IMG/VR virus record: IMGVR_UViG_3300008459_000379
Location: 1-24,413 of that record
Source: a virus
Taxonomy: Duplodnaviria; Caudoviricetes
Strand: one strand, 5' to 3'
Length of the DNA stretch: 24,413 nt
This document shows positions 16,536 through 24,094 of this stretch, in pieces. Both the position numbers and the translations under genes were made by a program. The notes under the pieces are model-generated. The model searched no databases and had not been told where the DNA came from. It was given only the letters and a program-made list of their open reading frames with translations. The first letter of the stretch is position 1; each line of letters opens with the position of its first letter.

Positions 16536-16596
16536 ATAAATACCCATCTAAATAAAAAAAGGGGGTAGGGGGGATTGGAACAACGGAAAAAAATTA
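16536..16596. repeat. G-rich intergenic repeat, copy 1 of 5
   Basis: ATAAATAC...AAAAAAAGGGGGTAGGGGGGATTGGAACAACGGAAAAAAATTA. Confidence 0.9.
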
Positions 16597-16932
16597 TTTT
16601 TCAACATTCATAAAGTTAACACCAATGAGACCTTTTCTTTCAGGGTCAACATATTCAATCATACTTTTAAATTTAATTTCCACAACGTTAACATAAGCTC
16701 CAACAACGTCTTTCTTTTTTTCTTTTCTAAGTTCAGGTGTGTACTTTAAAAACTTTGGTATATCAGGGATACTATAAACATCAACATAATACTTATGATA
16801 TTCATATGGGTCACCATATCTTACTTTAACCTTAAACTCAAACGGGTCGGTAATAAAATTATCAGTAATATACTTGTTTCCAAGATTATTGTATAACTTT
16901 GTTAAAATATTAGATAATTCAGTTAAATTCAT
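16594..16932 (-). CDS. Hypothetical protein
   Basis: 112 aa between repeat copies 1 and 2. Confidence 0.75.
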   Translation of the reverse strand: MNLTELSNILTKLYNNLGNKYITDNFITDPFEFKVKVRYGDPYEYHKYYVDVYSIPDIPKFLKYTPELRKEKKKDVVGAYVNVVEIKFKSMIEYVDPERKGLIGVNFMNVEK

Positions 16933-16938
16933 ATTACA

Positions 16939-16994
16939 ATAAATACATTAGAAATAAAAAGGGGGTTGGGGGATTGAACAACAGAGAAAAATTA
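16939..16994. repeat. G-rich intergenic repeat, copy 2
   Basis: ATAAATAC...AAAAAGGGGGTTGGGGGATTGAACAACAGAGAAAAATTA. Confidence 0.9.
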
Positions 16995-17654
16995 TTTTTT
17001 ACAATCATCAAATTTTTTGGATATAATTTCTTTCAATTCATCAAGTTCAGAGCGGAACCCTAAATTATAATGCCAAGCAATTTCATTCGAATATCTTTTT
17101 TTCATTTCCTCAATTACTTCATCAGATGCTTGTTTTATTAATTCACATTCATCACTATAATCATTATAAAACCATCTATCAATCATTTCTTCCACAGTGT
17201 CTTGTATAGGTTTCCTCCATATAATCAATGAAATAATACGATGAATTAATGTACTAATTCTTTTTGATGTTTTTCTTTCAATAGACTTTAATTCTTTAAG
17301 GATATCACCATTAAGGTAATTTGATTCAATTAAATCTAACAATAAATTTATGGCTTTATCTTGATTATATCCGTTAATTGATAAGTTGTATTTAACACCT
17401 CCATCATTATTATAAATTAATAATCTTAATCCTCCACCTGAATTTTCGTTTCTAATATCACCATAAAAATTTCTTACTTTGGTGGTGTTATCCAATAACT
17501 TATATAGTTTGGTATTTTCTAAAACATCAAAAATATTTAAACTGTCTTCCTTTTCTCCAATTCGTTTTGCTGGACGTTTTTTATCAGATTCGTTAACCAC
17601 CCTACTGACTATTCTAATCAAATCTGATTCAGTTAATCTTACAACTTTTTTCAT
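16992..17654 (-). CDS. Leader-bearing hypothetical protein (MKKVVRLTESDL...NESDKKRPAKRIG)
   Basis: 220 aa; ATGA coupling with the upstream gene. Confidence 0.75.
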   Translation of the reverse strand: MKKVVRLTESDLIRIVSRVVNESDKKRPAKRIGEKEDSLNIFDVLENTKLYKLLDNTTKVRNFYGDIRNENSGGGLRLLIYNNDGGVKYNLSINGYNQDKAINLLLDLIESNYLNGDILKELKSIERKTSKRISTLIHRIISLIIWRKPIQDTVEEMIDRWFYNDYSDECELIKQASDEVIEEMKKRYSNEIAWHYNLGFRSELDELKEIISKKFDDCKK

Positions 17655-18001
17655 ATTTCTTTTACAAATTGACCAAGACCAAGACTATTGAAACCTTTAC
17701 TTCTTAATTTGTTTTTAACTCGGTTGGCATCCTCCCTCTCGAATCCCGCATCAACAAAATCATAAGGAGCTCCGACATCAACAATAATGTATTTATGGGA
17801 CACATCAAATTTAACACATCCACCTGTAATATATTCTCTTAAATAACCACGGATTTCGTCATAAAAACTAGGTTTATCCTCAATTTGATTTGACGGACGT
17901 TTTTCGTCGGAACTAAGTTTATCCCCAATTCGTTTGGCTGGACGTTTTTTAATAGATTCAATTAATCTTTGAATTTGTGATTCGGTAACAATGTATTTCA
18001 T
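17651..18001 (-). CDS. Leader-bearing hypothetical protein (MKYIVTESQ...ESIKKRPAKRIG)
   Basis: 116 aa; TATTTAT 18008-18014. Confidence 0.75.
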   Translation of the reverse strand: MKYIVTESQIQRLIESIKKRPAKRIGDKLSSDEKRPSNQIEDKPSFYDEIRGYLREYITGGCVKFDVSHKYIIVDVGAPYDFVDAGFEREDANRVKNKLRSKGFNSLGLGQFVKEI

Positions 18002-18007
18002 ATTACA

Positions 18008-18063
18008 ATAAATACACTAAAAATAAAAAGGGGGTATGGGGGATTGACAACAAAGAAAAAAAA
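18008..18063. repeat. G-rich intergenic repeat, copy 3
   Basis: ATAAATACAC...AAAAAGGGGGTATGGGGGATTGACAACAAAGAAAAAAAA. Confidence 0.9.
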
Positions 18064-18072
18064 TTTTAGAAA

Positions 18073-18612
18073 TTAATCCATTATTTTTTTTTGATATTCT
18101 TCTTTATAAAGTTTTTCAAAATCATCAATAATTTTGTTTTGAGCTTTTTCACTAATCCTTCCATTAATGGTCTTTTCCAATTTAGAATAGAATTCATCTT
18201 CTCCGTCAGGGTTATTCATATAGTCCCACTTAATGCGGTTTGTGGGATACGTATTTCGTTTCCATATACCATTTTCTGTTTTATAATTAAAATTCACTTT
18301 AGTATTCCAAAAAATGGAAATTTCAACTTTACCTGAAGATTTTGTTATATGATAGATAATAACCAAAGCTGGTTCACTCCTATTATATTTTCTAAGTTCA
18401 GAAGTTAATTTATCAGGATTAATAAAAAATGCGGGATATTGCATATAACTATAGTTTCCAAATCTACCTTGGAACTTGGAGTTTAGAAAATCGGTTACAT
18501 CAGATTCAATTGCACTAGAAATATCGGTCTTTAAAAAACTTATTGTGTCCTCGTGTTTTTTAATTAGATTCCTTAATGCGGAATATTGTGCCTCAGTAAT
18601 AATATATTTCAT
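18073..18612 (-). CDS. Leader-bearing hypothetical protein (MKYIITEAQY)
   Basis: 179 aa between repeat copies 3 and 4. Confidence 0.75.
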   Translation of the reverse strand: MKYIITEAQYSALRNLIKKHEDTISFLKTDISSAIESDVTDFLNSKFQGRFGNYSYMQYPAFFINPDKLTSELRKYNRSEPALVIIYHITKSSGKVEISIFWNTKVNFNYKTENGIWKRNTYPTNRIKWDYMNNPDGEDEFYSKLEKTINGRISEKAQNKIIDDFEKLYKEEYQKKIMD

Positions 18613-18618
18613 ATATAA

Positions 18619-18678
18619 ATAAATACACTAAAAACAAAAAAAGGGGTAGGGGGGATTGACAACGACGAAAAAAAATTA
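18619..18678. repeat. G-rich intergenic repeat, copy 4
   Basis: ATAAATACAC...AAAAAAAGGGGTAGGGGGGATTGACAACGACGAAAAAAAATTA. Confidence 0.9.
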
Positions 18679-19041
18679 TTTTCTTCTTCTTAAAGTACTA
18701 TACCCATCATCAATAAATTTTTTCAAATAAGTTTCAACCTTATCTATAAAAAATTTATTCACCATTTCTGATGGCATAAATGCAAATAACTCTCTATTAC
18801 TTTCAAGTTTCGGAAAATGTCCGTCAGGTGTTAATCTATTAAATCTGGAATCATATTTAAAGAAAAATTCATACCCAAGGTTATATCCAAGTTTTTCCCC
18901 ATTTTTATAAAGATAAACCGTTGCGGTTATTGAATCGTAACCATTATCATACAAATACAAAATATTGTATGTGATATTATGTCTTTTAAGAAGGTTTGAA
19001 AATAAATCGTCAGATTGGCTTTCAGTTATAATATACCTCAT
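18676..19041 (-). CDS. Leader-bearing hypothetical protein (MRYIITESQ)
   Basis: 121 aa between repeat copies 4 and 5. Confidence 0.75.
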   Translation of the reverse strand: MRYIITESQSDDLFSNLLKRHNITYNILYLYDNGYDSITATVYLYKNGEKLGYNLGYEFFFKYDSRFNRLTPDGHFPKLESNRELFAFMPSEMVNKFFIDKVETYLKKFIDDGYSTLRRRK

Positions 19042-19047
19042 ATCACA

Positions 19048-19107
19048 ATAAATACACCAAAAACAAAAAAGGGGGTAGGGGGGATTGGAACAACGGAAAA
19101 AAAATTA
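19048..19107. repeat. G-rich intergenic repeat, copy 5
   Basis: 39-bp core identical to copy 1. Confidence 0.9.
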
Positions 19108-19443
19108 TTTTATTAATTCCCCCTTATTAATCACATCAATAATATCTTGTTCCTTAAACTCATCCTTCCAATTGTATTCGTGAGGAATATAATCAGGATA
19201 ACAATGTTTACCCTTAGGAACTCCCAACTTATTAACAACCCAATTATGAATATCACCATCCAAATCCTTAGATGGATAAAACTCAAAAAATACTTTCCAA
19301 AAATCCCGATTAAAAAATGTATATCCGCTATCAGCAACATTAACAACCCATTCCCGATTAACGGGGTGGATTATCCAATACCATCCCTTATAATGATATA
19401 CAGAAAAATTCTTAACATATAAATCAATTGCCTTATTAACCAT
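19105..19443 (-). CDS. Trp/aromatic-rich hypothetical protein, probable paralog of the 23570..24094 N-terminal domain
   Basis: W.I......W.......G......F...FF..F...I..WV...L pattern shared by eye. Confidence 0.7.
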   Translation of the reverse strand: MVNKAIDLYVKNFSVYHYKGWYWIIHPVNREWVVNVADSGYTFFNRDFWKVFFEFYPSKDLDGDIHNWVVNKLGVPKGKHCYPDYIPHEYNWKDEFKEQDIIDVINKGELIK

Positions 19444-19446
19444 ATA

Positions 19447-19719
19447 TCAAAAATCAATATTGTAATCTACCCTCTTATATATTCTTCTATAATTCTCCAA
19501 GTCCTCTTTCATATACTGAACAAATAACTTAAAGTTAATCTTCTCATCAAATTTAAATCTCTCATTCTCCTTATCCCTCGTTAACTGATTGTCAATTGAA
19601 TCAACAATCTCCTTTAGAATTTCCTTATAGATTAATTCCCTATCGGTAACCTTTCTTAACTCATCCCTCAGTTCAAGAATCTCTCCTTCCAATCTTTGGA
19701 TTTCATCATTACATTCCAT
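19447..19719 (-). CDS. Coiled-coil hypothetical protein
   Basis: 90 aa, operonic spacing. Confidence 0.7.
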   Translation of the reverse strand: MECNDEIQRLEGEILELRDELRKVTDRELIYKEILKEIVDSIDNQLTRDKENERFKFDEKINFKLFVQYMKEDLENYRRIYKRVDYNIDF

Positions 19720-20347
19720 TCCTCATTTCTTTTAAAAATTTATTATATAATTCAATATTAGAATCGTCAATCAAATTACTTTTTTTCAAATTTTCATCTT
19801 TCCATAACGGTCTAAGGTTGGTATAATGATTTAAATATTTAATTTCATCAATAGTATTACCAAGACTTGCAGGTACAATATGGTCAACATCCCATTCACC
19901 CCTGTTTCCCCAAGTCATACCATCTTGAAATAATCCTTCAATATACTTAATAAAACCATCATCATCAATCCCAAGAATCTCAGAAGTCTTACAAGGTTTT
20001 GAATAACCATTTTTTTTGAACAGTCCCCTAATACTCCTTGATAACATTTTCCTAAATCGATAAAGAGGGTCAATTTTTAATCTATTCTTTACCTGTTTTT
20101 TATTTTTAGTTATTATCATAGACTTATACTCAGGGTCAGACTCCATCCTACGTTTCATACGAGCATATCTTTTATCACTCTGTATCTTTCTATAATCAGG
20201 GCTCAACTCCATTTTACGTTTTCTACGCTCCCTACTCCTAACATTAAAACACTTCTTACAATAACTGCTCAATTTATTTTTTTCCTTAAAATAAAAATCA
20301 GTAGTATCTTTTTCCACTTTACAAGTAATACAAACTTTTGTTAACAT
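19709..20347 (-). CDS. HNH (homing-type) endonuclease with N-terminal CxxC/CxxC zinc finger
   Basis: CITC, CKKC; WDVDHIVP...NHYTNLRPLW..ENLKKSN; promoter TTTG-N20-TATCTTTG (20352-20383) 4 nt before the ATG. Confidence 0.85.
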   Translation of the reverse strand: MLTKVCITCKVEKDTTDFYFKEKNKLSSYCKKCFNVRSRERRKRKMELSPDYRKIQSDKRYARMKRRMESDPEYKSMIITKNKKQVKNRLKIDPLYRFRKMLSRSIRGLFKKNGYSKPCKTSEILGIDDDGFIKYIEGLFQDGMTWGNRGEWDVDHIVPASLGNTIDEIKYLNHYTNLRPLWKDENLKKSNLIDDSNIELYNKFLKEMRNGM

Positions 20348-22143: not shown

Positions 22144-22548
22144 ATGAAACTAAAAGATAGGTGCGATAAATATTCCGTCCAAGAACTTAGGGACCTCGGC
22201 AAGATTGTGGTTGAGGTAACAAGAAAAGTTCTTGGACACGGGAATAAACCAACCCCTTCATTTCATATCCGAAACAATATGTCCAACCTATATGGCCAGT
22301 ACTGTTATAGTCATAAGATATTTATCAACCCATCCACCTGTGAGACCATATCGTATTTCGTTGGGGTGACCATTCACGAATACACCCACCACATACAAAA
22401 GGGACTGAAAAGAAACTACGACTCATCCGTAAAGAAACACGGGTATAACAACTGTCCCTTCGAGATAGAAGCAATCTCTAATGCCAAGAAGTACAAGAAG
22501 AAAGTATGGAAGGAAGTTAAACGACTAATGTGCGAAAGTAATTCGTAA
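22144..22548 (+). CDS. HExxH zincin-like metallopeptidase domain protein
   Basis: LYGQY...I.IN...TIHEYTHHIQ...PFEIEA. Confidence 0.8.
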   Translation: MKLKDRCDKYSVQELRDLGKIVVEVTRKVLGHGNKPTPSFHIRNNMSNLYGQYCYSHKIFINPSTCETISYFVGVTIHEYTHHIQKGLKRNYDSSVKKHGYNNCPFEIEAISNAKKYKKKVWKEVKRLMCESNS

Positions 22549-22780
22549 TGGTCTGTATGGGAGATTCCTCACCCTTGAATAATTCCATATACTCAGGAGT
22601 GAAACTATATCCGACAAGAGTTATTATATCCCCTTGGTATGGGGTATGACTTATTCTATACTCCATCTTACCCACCTTCTCATCATTATAATATAGGTAA
22701 GCAGCCTTATGTCCCCTTAGGGTATCATATGACACCCTCGTATTTCTTAGTGTGTCGTATACTGAATTGGTCTCTGTCAT
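22517..22780 (-). CDS. Hypothetical protein (uncertain), YDTLR occurs twice
   Basis: 87-aa ORF overlapping the convergent gene by 32 nt. Confidence 0.45.
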   Translation of the reverse strand: MTETNSVYDTLRNTRVSYDTLRGHKAAYLYYNDEKVGKMEYRISHTPYQGDIITLVGYSFTPEYMELFKGEESPIQTITNYFRTLVV

Positions 22781-22789
22781 AGCGTCAGG

Positions 22790-23530
22790 GGGAAATTGTT
22801 GATAACTTTATTTGTTAATTTTCTTGATTTTGTCAAAATGTCAGTTGACGTGACACAGGGGACAATCCCCTCGACGGGTTTTTAACATTATAACTATAAT
22901 AAATATATGGTATATTGTGTAGTATATGTTAATAAAATAACTCCCACTTTTTCCCACTGACGTATACGTGAGAGGGGTTTTTGTTCATATGAAAAGTAAG
23001 AAAAATGGTCCTGACGATAGCGTTAGAAGGGTTTTTTTTACTATGTATATAATCCAGCGAAAAGTAGGACGTATAAAAGAAATGGCGTGGACAGACTTTA
23101 GTCGTTATAATCTTCAACGAAAATAGGTTGTTATAGTGTCCTTCAATGGGGTTCTTAGACTTTCCCCTTTCAAATGAGACACAATATATGGACAATTATA
23201 ATGGTGGTAAAAAGTGGGACATAATGTGTTATATAAGGGATAACCCTGTAGGGTTATGTGTCTTATAAGGGATATTGTCCCCTTCACACTCCACCATATA
23301 TGTTATACCCTAACAGGTATACTCATATCGTGTTATATACCCTTTAGGGTATCTCATTATCCCGATGGGGTACAATACCATTCACAGTAATATGTTATGT
23401 CCCTTATATGGTGTGTCTTTCGTTAGGGGGTTATTATATATGGGGAAATTAGGAAGTAAACAAATGAATGTACCCATTAGTGTAATGACCCGAAGGGGAA
23501 TGGAACGACACGATAGTGGAATGGGGGAAT
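22790..23530. other. Non-coding block with many short CCC/GGG palindromes
   Basis: ATAACCCT-GT-AGGGTTAT 23240-23257; TATACC-N6-GGTATA 23304-23321; ATACCCT-TT-AGGGTAT 23337-23352. Confidence 0.65.
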
Positions 23531-23533
23531 GAG

Positions 23534-23565
23534 TTTGTTTAGTTCGTAATTTATTACTATATTTG
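23534..23565 (+). promoter_or_regulatory. Bacteroidota promoter TTTG-N20-TATATTTG
   Basis: TTTG 23534-23537, TATATTTG 23558-23565, ATG 4 nt later. Confidence 0.75.
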
Positions 23566-23569
23566 TACT

Positions 23570-24094
23570 ATGGTTATTACAGATAGATTAAAACAACTTA
23601 TTTTTAAACACCTATATAAAGAGTTAGGTAATGTGGAGATAATCCCATATAATGGCTCTGTATGGTTTATTGATAGGGAAAATAGTTATTGGTATTTTCA
23701 GTTGTCTAAACAGGGATGTTTATATTGGAGATACTCATTCTTCCCATCATTTTTCAGCATTTTTTCTTTGGAACAGAGTGAGTTTGAACCAATACTATCT
23801 TCTTGGGTGGAAGAGGTATTAAATAGTAAGGTATCCACAACAGACATTGAGAATGTTATTTCTTTCAGGGAGGTGGAAGAGGTATTAAATAGTAGGGTAT
23901 CCACAACTAATAGTCTATGGCCCCCTCGAATGCACAAGGTGGAAGAGGTCTTAAATAGTAAAGTATCTACAACTTATTCTTGTACTTTCACTTCAGACGA
24001 ATTGTTGGAAGATATATTAAATCATAAGGTATGTGAAACGGATGTAGAAATGTCTGTTATGAATTATGTGATGGAACAGGTCTTAAATCAATAA
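23570..24094 (+). CDS. Protein with aromatic N-terminal domain and 22-aa periodic tail (VEEVLNSKVSTT + 10 variable residues)
   Basis: 174-aa ORF with promoter; repeat substitutions mostly synonymous. Confidence 0.8.
   Translation: MVITDRLKQLIFKHLYKELGNVEIIPYNGSVWFIDRENSYWYFQLSKQGCLYWRYSFFPSFFSIFSLEQSEFEPILSSWVEEVLNSKVSTTDIENVISFREVEEVLNSRVSTTNSLWPPRMHKVEEVLNSKVSTTYSCTFTSDELLEDILNHKVCETDVEMSVMNYVMEQVLNQ
23806..24094 (+). repeat. CRISPR-like in-frame array: 36-nt repeats at 23806, 23872, 23938, 24004 (degenerate) and 24070 (partial), separated by four unique 30-nt spacers
   Basis: Repeat GGTGGAAGAGGTATTAAATAGTAAGGTATCCACAAC; exact 66-nt period; spacers unrelated to each other. Confidence 0.85.

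Follow-up and report, generated by a model that had tools for sequence, protein, structure and literature searches.

A CRISPR-like array kept open as protein within a phage gene and the likely writing of captured host DNA into a viral protein

Phage proteins with a hypervariable C-terminal part are known from diversity-generating retroelements. Among the systems closest to the locus considered here is the type VI-B array of Flavobacterium columnare, a Cas-less array with 36-nt repeats that is filled in trans, from phage as well as host DNA, by a type II-C Cas1-Cas2, the mismatch in repeat length being left unexplained in the accessible passages of that report (PMC8092290). Short arrays without adaptation genes are carried by viruses too, as viral mini-arrays and as the compact arrays of huge phages (PMC11656645, PMC7162821, from the sections available), and in Campylobacter jejuni with phages encoding Cas4-like proteins the type II-C machinery takes up host DNA, according to the accessible part of the paper (PMC4283603). 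Here we describe an array that lies in a phage gene and stays open in its reading frame. It was noticed in a 24-kb virus record, the whole of which (24,413 nucleotides) is called the window below.

The array makes up the 3' half of one plus-strand gene (Table 1) and consists of four 36-nt repeats and a truncated fifth, with four mutually unrelated 30-nt inserts between them. The original prediction had given this architecture from the letters alone, and we re-found its repeat coordinates and the exact 30-nt spacing, all within one ORF; the three changes in repeat 3 are indeed synonymous, and the single change in repeat 2 is a non-synonymous one, a point absent from the initial description. The repeat starts at the third base of codon W79, and in this register it encodes a 12-residue motif and the insert ten residues. 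The self-complementary ends pointed out earlier (GTGGA/TCCAC) do form a stem, but a weak one (-6.3 kcal/mol, z -2.4), which is lost in repeats 3-5. Among the homologues listed, insert 1 is common to P0001, P0003, P0005-P0012 and P0016, and insert 2 occurs in P0001 alone of the 120; the family of insert 4 (family 9) turns up terminally in another group of paralogues as well, which points to recombination between them. In four public DNA runs the contigs break at 23841/23806, from which it follows that the repeat boundaries are fixed, and several of these joints carry other 30-nt inserts, which may stem from paralogous genes. As a separate observation, positions 24001-24027 of the degenerate repeat 4 are identical at 26 of 27 positions to a conserved gene in genome G660, which we take from its sequence to be relA/spoT-like, and at 24-25 of 27 in four more genomes of the candidate host family; this is probably chance and possibly gene conversion from host DNA.

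Table 1. Coordinates of the array, its gene and the predicted promoter in the window
Feature	Position	Strand	Remark
Predicted promoter, Bacteroidota sigma-A type; TTG box and, 4 nt ahead of ATG, TAnnTTTG box	23534..23565	+	from sequence
Array-bearing gene, 174 aa	23570..24094	+	582 homologues; 644 clusters at 50% identity
Conserved N-terminal domain, residues 1-79; doubles as array leader	23570..23806	+	pLDDT ~70-85, pN/pS 0.17
Repeat 1, 36 nt, putative integration site; encodes VEEVLNSKVSTT	23806..23841	+	reference copy for mismatches (0)
Insert 1, 30 nt, DIENVISFRE; newest position	23842..23871	+	
Repeat 2, 1 mismatch to repeat 1, K to R	23872..23907	+	
Insert 2, 30 nt, NSLWPPRMHK	23908..23937	+	
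Repeat 3, 3 synonymous mismatches to repeat 1	23938..23973	+	
Insert 3, 30 nt, YSCTFTSDEL; older, widely shared	23974..24003	+	
Repeat 4, 9 mismatches to repeat 1	24004..24039	+	
Insert 4, 30 nt, DVEMSVMNYV; trailer unit	24040..24069	+	
Truncated terminal repeat and stop codon	24070..24094	+	

The carrier of the array is a large T4-like lake phage, with a host probably among the Bacteroidota. The relatives of the record have genomes of 290-320 kb with a GC content of 31-32%, and encode T4-like portal, capsid, sheath and baseplate genes, the nearest cultured capsids being those of Flavobacterium phages (42% identity). In their T4-like genes, their size and a gene for ribosomal protein bS21, present in 4 of 5 related genomes, they are alike the bS21-encoding freshwater myoviruses, for which Bacteroidetes hosts are predicted; the accessible passages of that paper on CRISPR and repeats leave these arrays unmentioned (PMC9723584). 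The -7 box of the predicted promoter, TAnnTTTG, is the Bacteroidota sigma-A consensus in the part of the literature available (PMC9723704), and among 63 distinct regions upstream of homologues it stands 2-14 nt before the start in 41, the remaining 22 lying mostly directly 3' of another array gene. This sequence suggests an early, nearly leaderless mRNA, which would be made by the host polymerase.

Several further features were noted in the window. An endonuclease VII/HNH-like gene (19709-20347) and a small HExxH-motif gene with a weak DUF6782 match (22144-22548) lie near the array gene, and directly upstream of the array gene there is about 1 kb (22550-23530) without a convincing gene, highly variable from strain to strain. 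Many unrelated minus-strand genes between 3436 and 19045 open with a common motif of 15-20 residues (families D1, D8, D11 and D14), and a G-rich intergenic element of 57-91 nt occurs five times between tandem small genes at 16545-19127 (families D3 and D4). GATC and CATG have 0 occurrences each in positions 1-24413, with 134 expected on both strands; in the related genomes G001 and G002 GATC is missing and CATG is kept, which suggests lineage-specific restriction barriers.

The array is not a chance arrangement, since 582 homologous proteins were found for one of two queries (878 for the other) and 120 listed ones of these 582 show the 12-residue motif alternating with 10-residue inserts. The 644 clusters that the proteins form at 50% identity include other repeat types and proteins of up to 611 aa, and the distant homologues P0209, P0228, P0291, P0293, P0300 and P0319 combine other types of 12-residue repeats and inserts of about ten residues with long decayed tails, up to 611 aa. 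In G001 there are four array genes, three of which overlap in tandem, stop to start. No Pfam, NCBIfam or PHROG family covers the array gene, and none of 50,697 annotated phages has a protein that matches it; Rfam returned three chance-level matches and no family, the Atlas gave no usable match, HMM and PDB searches with the array peptides gave noise, and a homologue of 519-2000 aa was not found, which is weak evidence. Residues 1-79 are predicted to form a helix, four strands and two helices, the last helix continuing into repeat 1 in the model, and with a pLDDT of about 70-85 over residues 1-80 and below 50 over the tail the protein is predicted to consist of a small alpha-beta fold followed by a tail that is disordered. 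The best fold match had Z 5.2 in VIA, and Foldseek against PDB gave nothing at E 0.001; within a comparison made of these two, weak or missing matches are not evidence of a new fold.

In the relatives the array has repeats of constant length and unique, regular spacers, with polar acquisition and trailer decay, as CRISPR arrays have. The number of units varies between homologues, as had been foreseen, and the inserts stay at 30 nt: all 344 distinct inserts of 104 related arrays are 30, 36 or 39 nt long and keep the frame. Among 97 arrays with an intact leader (244 insert families), 40% of the inserts in first position are unique, compared with 12% in last position, so new units do enter at the 5' end, and the decay toward the 3' end seen in the window recurs as a rise of the repeat mismatches from 1.8 to 5.1 toward the trailer. 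Two four-fold-degenerate sites of repeat 1 are invariant in 13/13 and 12/12 leader groups, and leader sites vary. Peptides ending in a residue that is unable to have a G-ending codon are 4 of 180, against 46 one position earlier, which means that the array boundaries are fixed at the nucleotide level. A sister family has a 36-nt repeat with an offset of one base relative to the codons, and its inserts measure 29 nt (15 cases), 30 nt (11), 31 nt (11) and 26 nt (1); insertion thus ignores the frame.

These observations bear directly on the view that the locus is an ordinary protein repeat, in which old cassettes are reshuffled by recombination and no foreign DNA is captured. Recombination certainly acts: unit order is conserved among the 97 arrays, units are lost internally, internal deletions are common, and 11 of the 244 insert families are shared between paralogue groups. 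Against reshuffling stand the strict 5' polarity, the nucleotide-fixed boundaries, the 29-31-nt inserts of the sister family and the off-frame and antisense source matches described below, which protein convergence could not produce. What the original prediction had named as the marks of an ordinary protein repeat did not appear in the homologues, at the repeat ends or in the source comparison, and we consider this view highly improbable and already largely refuted.

The inserts evolve under purifying selection at the protein level. Of 255 insert families 1 contains an in-frame stop, or 3 if the boundary codon is included, where 121 would be expected, and the other five frames have 71-135 stop-containing families; 95 of 97 arrays are open throughout, with both stops in the last unit. 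When versions of one insert are compared, 79 of 130 changes fall at third positions, and the insert pN/pS is 0.21 compared with 1.8 and 1.1 in the shifted frames, so that stop depletion and synonymous bias coincide in one frame, as in protein-coding sequence. The values for inserts (0.21-0.24) are near that of the domain (0.17), with the repeats at about 0.5, a value inflated by unit deletions. The original prediction spoke of arbitrary 10-aa peptides added by spacer-style insertion; once acquired, the peptides, with a pN/pS of about 0.2, are not arbitrary. In the sister family the first inserts with a stop number 1 of 22 at lengths of 29 or 31 nt and 5 of 7 at 30 nt, as though a single terminal peptide had the advantage there. 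GATC is absent from the inserts (0, with 42 expected on both strands) as it is from G001 (0, with 1,431 expected), and 11 of 290 host-like 30-mers contain it, which is consistent with a restriction filter.

It could be argued that such an array arises by accidental off-target integration at a gene end resembling a leader-repeat junction, the tail being kept in frame and harmless without any specific peptide function. In composition the peptides resemble a random translation and show no motif tied to a position, the tail is predicted to be disordered (pLDDT under 50), and a premature stop could have polar effects, the stop of one tandem array gene overlapping the start of the next; all this would suit such an accident. 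However, the inserts are constrained almost as the domain is and more than the repeats, the window's gene has no downstream gene on its own strand and yet stays open, up to four array genes exist per genome and the family has 644 clusters, and the sister family has a different filter (stops in 1/22 against 5/7). We regard accidental integration as distinctly unlikely.

The origin of the inserts was sought in bacterial and phage DNA. Their GC content is 41.5%, versus 31-32% in the phages and 0.37-0.38 in G328 and G517, two genomes of one Bacteroidia family. One insert peptide, picked by eye and presumed to be SecA-like, was then tested: it matched at 27-28 of 30 nt in 3 of 401 Bacteroidia genomes and at up to 29 of 30 in 7 of 121 genomes of G328's family, the best match (29/30, in G517) having its sole difference at a position that is silent in the phage. 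The SecA identity of the matched gene was confirmed, and a reversed-pattern control gave 0 matches; the secA match is not independent evidence, as G328 was chosen because of it.

In a wider comparison, 289 insert families were run in six frames against 563,919 aa (about 1.8 Mb of this family, namely 1.56 of the 4.0 Mb of G328, and 0.23 Mb of G517), the score being the identical residues of 9 plus half of the identical bases. At a score of at least 19 there were 6 families of 289 (5 without secA), compared with a control mean of 0.12 and maximum of 1 in 25 sets; at 18 or higher, 13 families (controls 1.9, maximum 5, 25 sets); and at 17 or higher, 37 (18.4, maximum 26, 25 sets). Phage genes (130,422 aa), searched in the same way, yielded 0 at a score of at least 19, and a test on peptides only gave 3 of 558 at 9/10 or better with 0, 0 and 0 in controls. 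The six sources are secA, rsmH, nuoG, glmS, rplM and paaC. The matches lie on both strands of Bacteroidia genes: rsmH and nuoG are sense and in frame, rplM and paaC antisense, and the glmS insert, from the sister family, is sense and off frame with all five mismatches silent in the host gene. The strong sources mostly match at 22-24 of 29-30 nt, in relatives and not in the true host, and few matches are to be expected, because only conserved stretches are visible in part of a relative's genome. In the 5' flanks, which are those of relatives, G at -8 and -5 is found in 5 of the 6 top matches, in 0 of the next 7 and in 284 of 6,649 controls (4.3%), a pattern that was noticed post hoc and serves as a lead at most.

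The rsmH insert belongs to the window's own paralogue group (L002, P0003); it has no match with three or fewer mismatches in 15 genomes of G328's genus and no BLAST match in five others. The spacer search suggested earlier was thus successful for 6 of 289 insert families of relatives, but the window's own four inserts match nothing, their best hits of 20-22 of 30 equalling reversed controls. Insert 1 had no source in the searches of the candidate family, and an exact search of viral contigs for insert 2 returned the array itself only. No sources were found for inserts in five Bacteroidota genomes or in 87 genomes of another order, nor for those of L005 in 401 Bacteroidia genomes (two candidates scored per genome), and family BLAST searches gave no source, with matches mostly in repeats and A+T-rich leaders. 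The expectation of protospacers in phages was not borne out: there were 0 strong matches in G001, G002 and other viral loci, none for 18 inserts against 50,697 phage records, and the identified sources are bacterial chromosomal genes. Among candidates tried, mraY failed on inspection, and sufC, recJ, S1/P1-like and deoC-like genes, with 6-12 mismatches, were not counted. Random synthesis of the inserts was rejected too, as TA is under-represented where codon position 3 meets position 1 (0.72) and mixed coding frames give a better fit than random bases do, in-frame coding pieces making up about 50% by a rough estimate from this fit. Overall, the reading of the locus as one of spacer-style insertion is supported, and source sequences exist for six insert families of relatives.

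It was also suggested that the locus might be dual-use, and one may go further and suppose that the array is mainly an RNA, serving a host Cas13b or Cas9 as crRNA-like guides that silence host genes, or as decoys that titrate the effector, with the frame secondary. The repeat is identical at 20-24 of 36 positions to seven type VI-B repeats, its ends are conserved at silent sites, the sources are host genes, and phage arrays borrowing host Cas proteins have been described (PMC7162821, PMC11656645, in the parts consulted). The proposed resemblance to Bacteroidota VI-B repeats holds for length and ends, which II-C ends fit as well, but the inner 17 nt match at 6-8 positions and the fold differs, the hairpin being weaker than the VI-B one (-11 kcal/mol). 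Bacterial arrays found through the repeat's ends, in a scan covering half of the collection, are VI-B-like with 12-16 mismatches of 36, two of them beside cas13b; this likeness is partly circular, as the search pattern was taken from the repeat ends, and the sister repeat, which did not enter the pattern, matches VI-B arrays at 20-26 of 36 when reversed. Moreover, the inserts show drift at sites that are silent in the phage frame, a pattern that selection on a guide would not favour, 4 of 6 sources are sense-strand and unable to pair with the mRNA, and there is no Rfam family. A weak Cas13b-like match was seen in 1 of 141 host-family genomes, a 1,021-aa open frame (L563, G595:C470; E 7e-12, below the cut-off). 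The dual-use idea has found little support, and a mainly RNA function looks improbable to us.

As for the enzyme that writes the array, the window contains no cas genes, as the original prediction said, and none of Cas1, Cas4 and Cas13b was found in the related phage genomes searched (five for the Cas4 family and for cas13b), three of which are complete. All three complete genomes carry units of the sister family, and the window's class is known from G001, which is 82% complete; no Cas1, Cas4, reverse transcriptase or integrase family was seen among its 249 scanned ORFs, which covered those of at least 70 aa except for one of 4,766 aa. In the candidate host family Cas1 was found in 24 of 121 genomes and not in 97, with G328 among the latter. 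The cas1 loci have periods of 76-77 nt with spacers of about 30 nt in 15 of 26 cases, and, where the full repeat was recovered, their repeats have GTTG/GGTG and CAAC/CACC ends. On this analysis a host type II-C Cas1-Cas2 would be the likeliest writer.

An unrecognised integrase encoded by the phage could do the same, capture and translated product being unchanged. In favour of such an enzyme, the repeat measures 36 nt and the II-C repeats of the candidate host family 46-47 nt, and arrays vary in many related phages with Cas1 in only a fifth or so of the family's genomes (24/121); most phage ORFs have no family, and the two array classes, with their one-base offset relative to codons, are closer reversed (22/36) than direct (15/36). 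But insert length, polarity and terminal tetramers fit the II-C and VI-B arrays of Bacteroidota, and neither the ORF scan of G001 nor a family search gave a candidate, so we see a phage integrase as unlikely.

We propose that the gene carries a 5'-growing array within an open protein, whose inserts likely stem from the host chromosome and were put in most likely by the host's II-C Cas1-Cas2, a spacer-acquisition enzyme, and whose peptides would serve host takeover or counter-defence; we give this reading, taken as a whole, a probability somewhat above one half (roughly 0.55). Host DNA degraded in infection would supply fragments of about 30 bp, and the integrase would duplicate the 36 nt that encode the last helix of the domain and place the fragment after the first copy. 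Insertion would be blind to frame, as the 29-31 nt of the sister family indicate, and selection would then purge inserts with a frameshift, a stop or GATC, with recombination between repeats deleting and swapping older units. A constraint almost equal to the domain's, together with the predicted early expression, is what points the peptides towards takeover or counter-defence. We may even suggest, as an evenly balanced guess, that one family of jumbo phages uses spacer acquisition as an engine of protein evolution, presenting a coding sequence for integration, harvesting 30-bp pieces of the host chromosome and keeping those whose ten-residue products are useful in infection, with the in-frame SecA, RsmH and NuoG snippets as possible mimics or decoys, and that the arrays form an ordered record of the hosts infected in each phage lineage.

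It seems likely that captured host DNA enters a viral protein in the form of new peptides. If true, CRISPR-type DNA capture gains a second natural use, that of writing new peptide sequence into a gene, and a diversifier is added beside diversity-generating retroelements and cassette recombination; the usual direction is reversed, with the virus recording its host. The inserts would then name hosts of uncultured jumbo phages, one of them having already led to a Bacteroidia family, and would let one follow, in nature, the onset of selection on new peptides, and the filling of 36-nt repeats in hosts with 46-47-nt II-C repeats would become testable. In the literature on translated or in-frame arrays and on spacer-driven protein diversification, mostly open papers with supplements aside, we found no description of such a locus.

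Compared with the systems named at the outset, the locus shares with the F. columnare array a 36-nt repeat, spacers of about 30 nt, polar growth and the lack of adjoining cas1/cas2; host-genome spacers occur there as well, as far as the accessible text goes (PMC8092290), and the repeat of our locus is 24/36 identical to the F. columnare repeat in L213. Here, in contrast, the array is phage-borne, lies within a gene with a coding leader, is selected as protein, and has a weaker repeat hairpin and no Cas13b nearby. With the viral mini-arrays and huge-phage arrays it has in common that it is phage-borne, short and without adaptation genes, with presumed use of host Cas proteins; their repeats are identical or similar to the host's and their spacers mostly target related viruses, in the passages available (PMC11656645, PMC7162821), whereas for our array no identical host repeat was found in a scan of half of the collection, the identified sources are bacterial genes, and the frame is kept open as protein. 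In C. jejuni the spacers enter the host's own array, on the available account (PMC4283603), and here the phage's. A diversity-generating retroelement would have a template repeat and adenine-specific change, of which we see neither; whole foreign 30-mers, mutually unrelated, are added instead, and the G001 scan showed no reverse transcriptase. Spurious proteins from mistranslated CRISPR arrays likewise have peptide repeats split by unique stretches of equal length (PMC7673337, accessible sections), but the conserved domain, predicted promoter, stop depletion and pN/pS of about 0.2 speak for a real gene here. The array works like CRISPR but, by the criteria examined, is neither a type VI-B system nor a viral mini-array.
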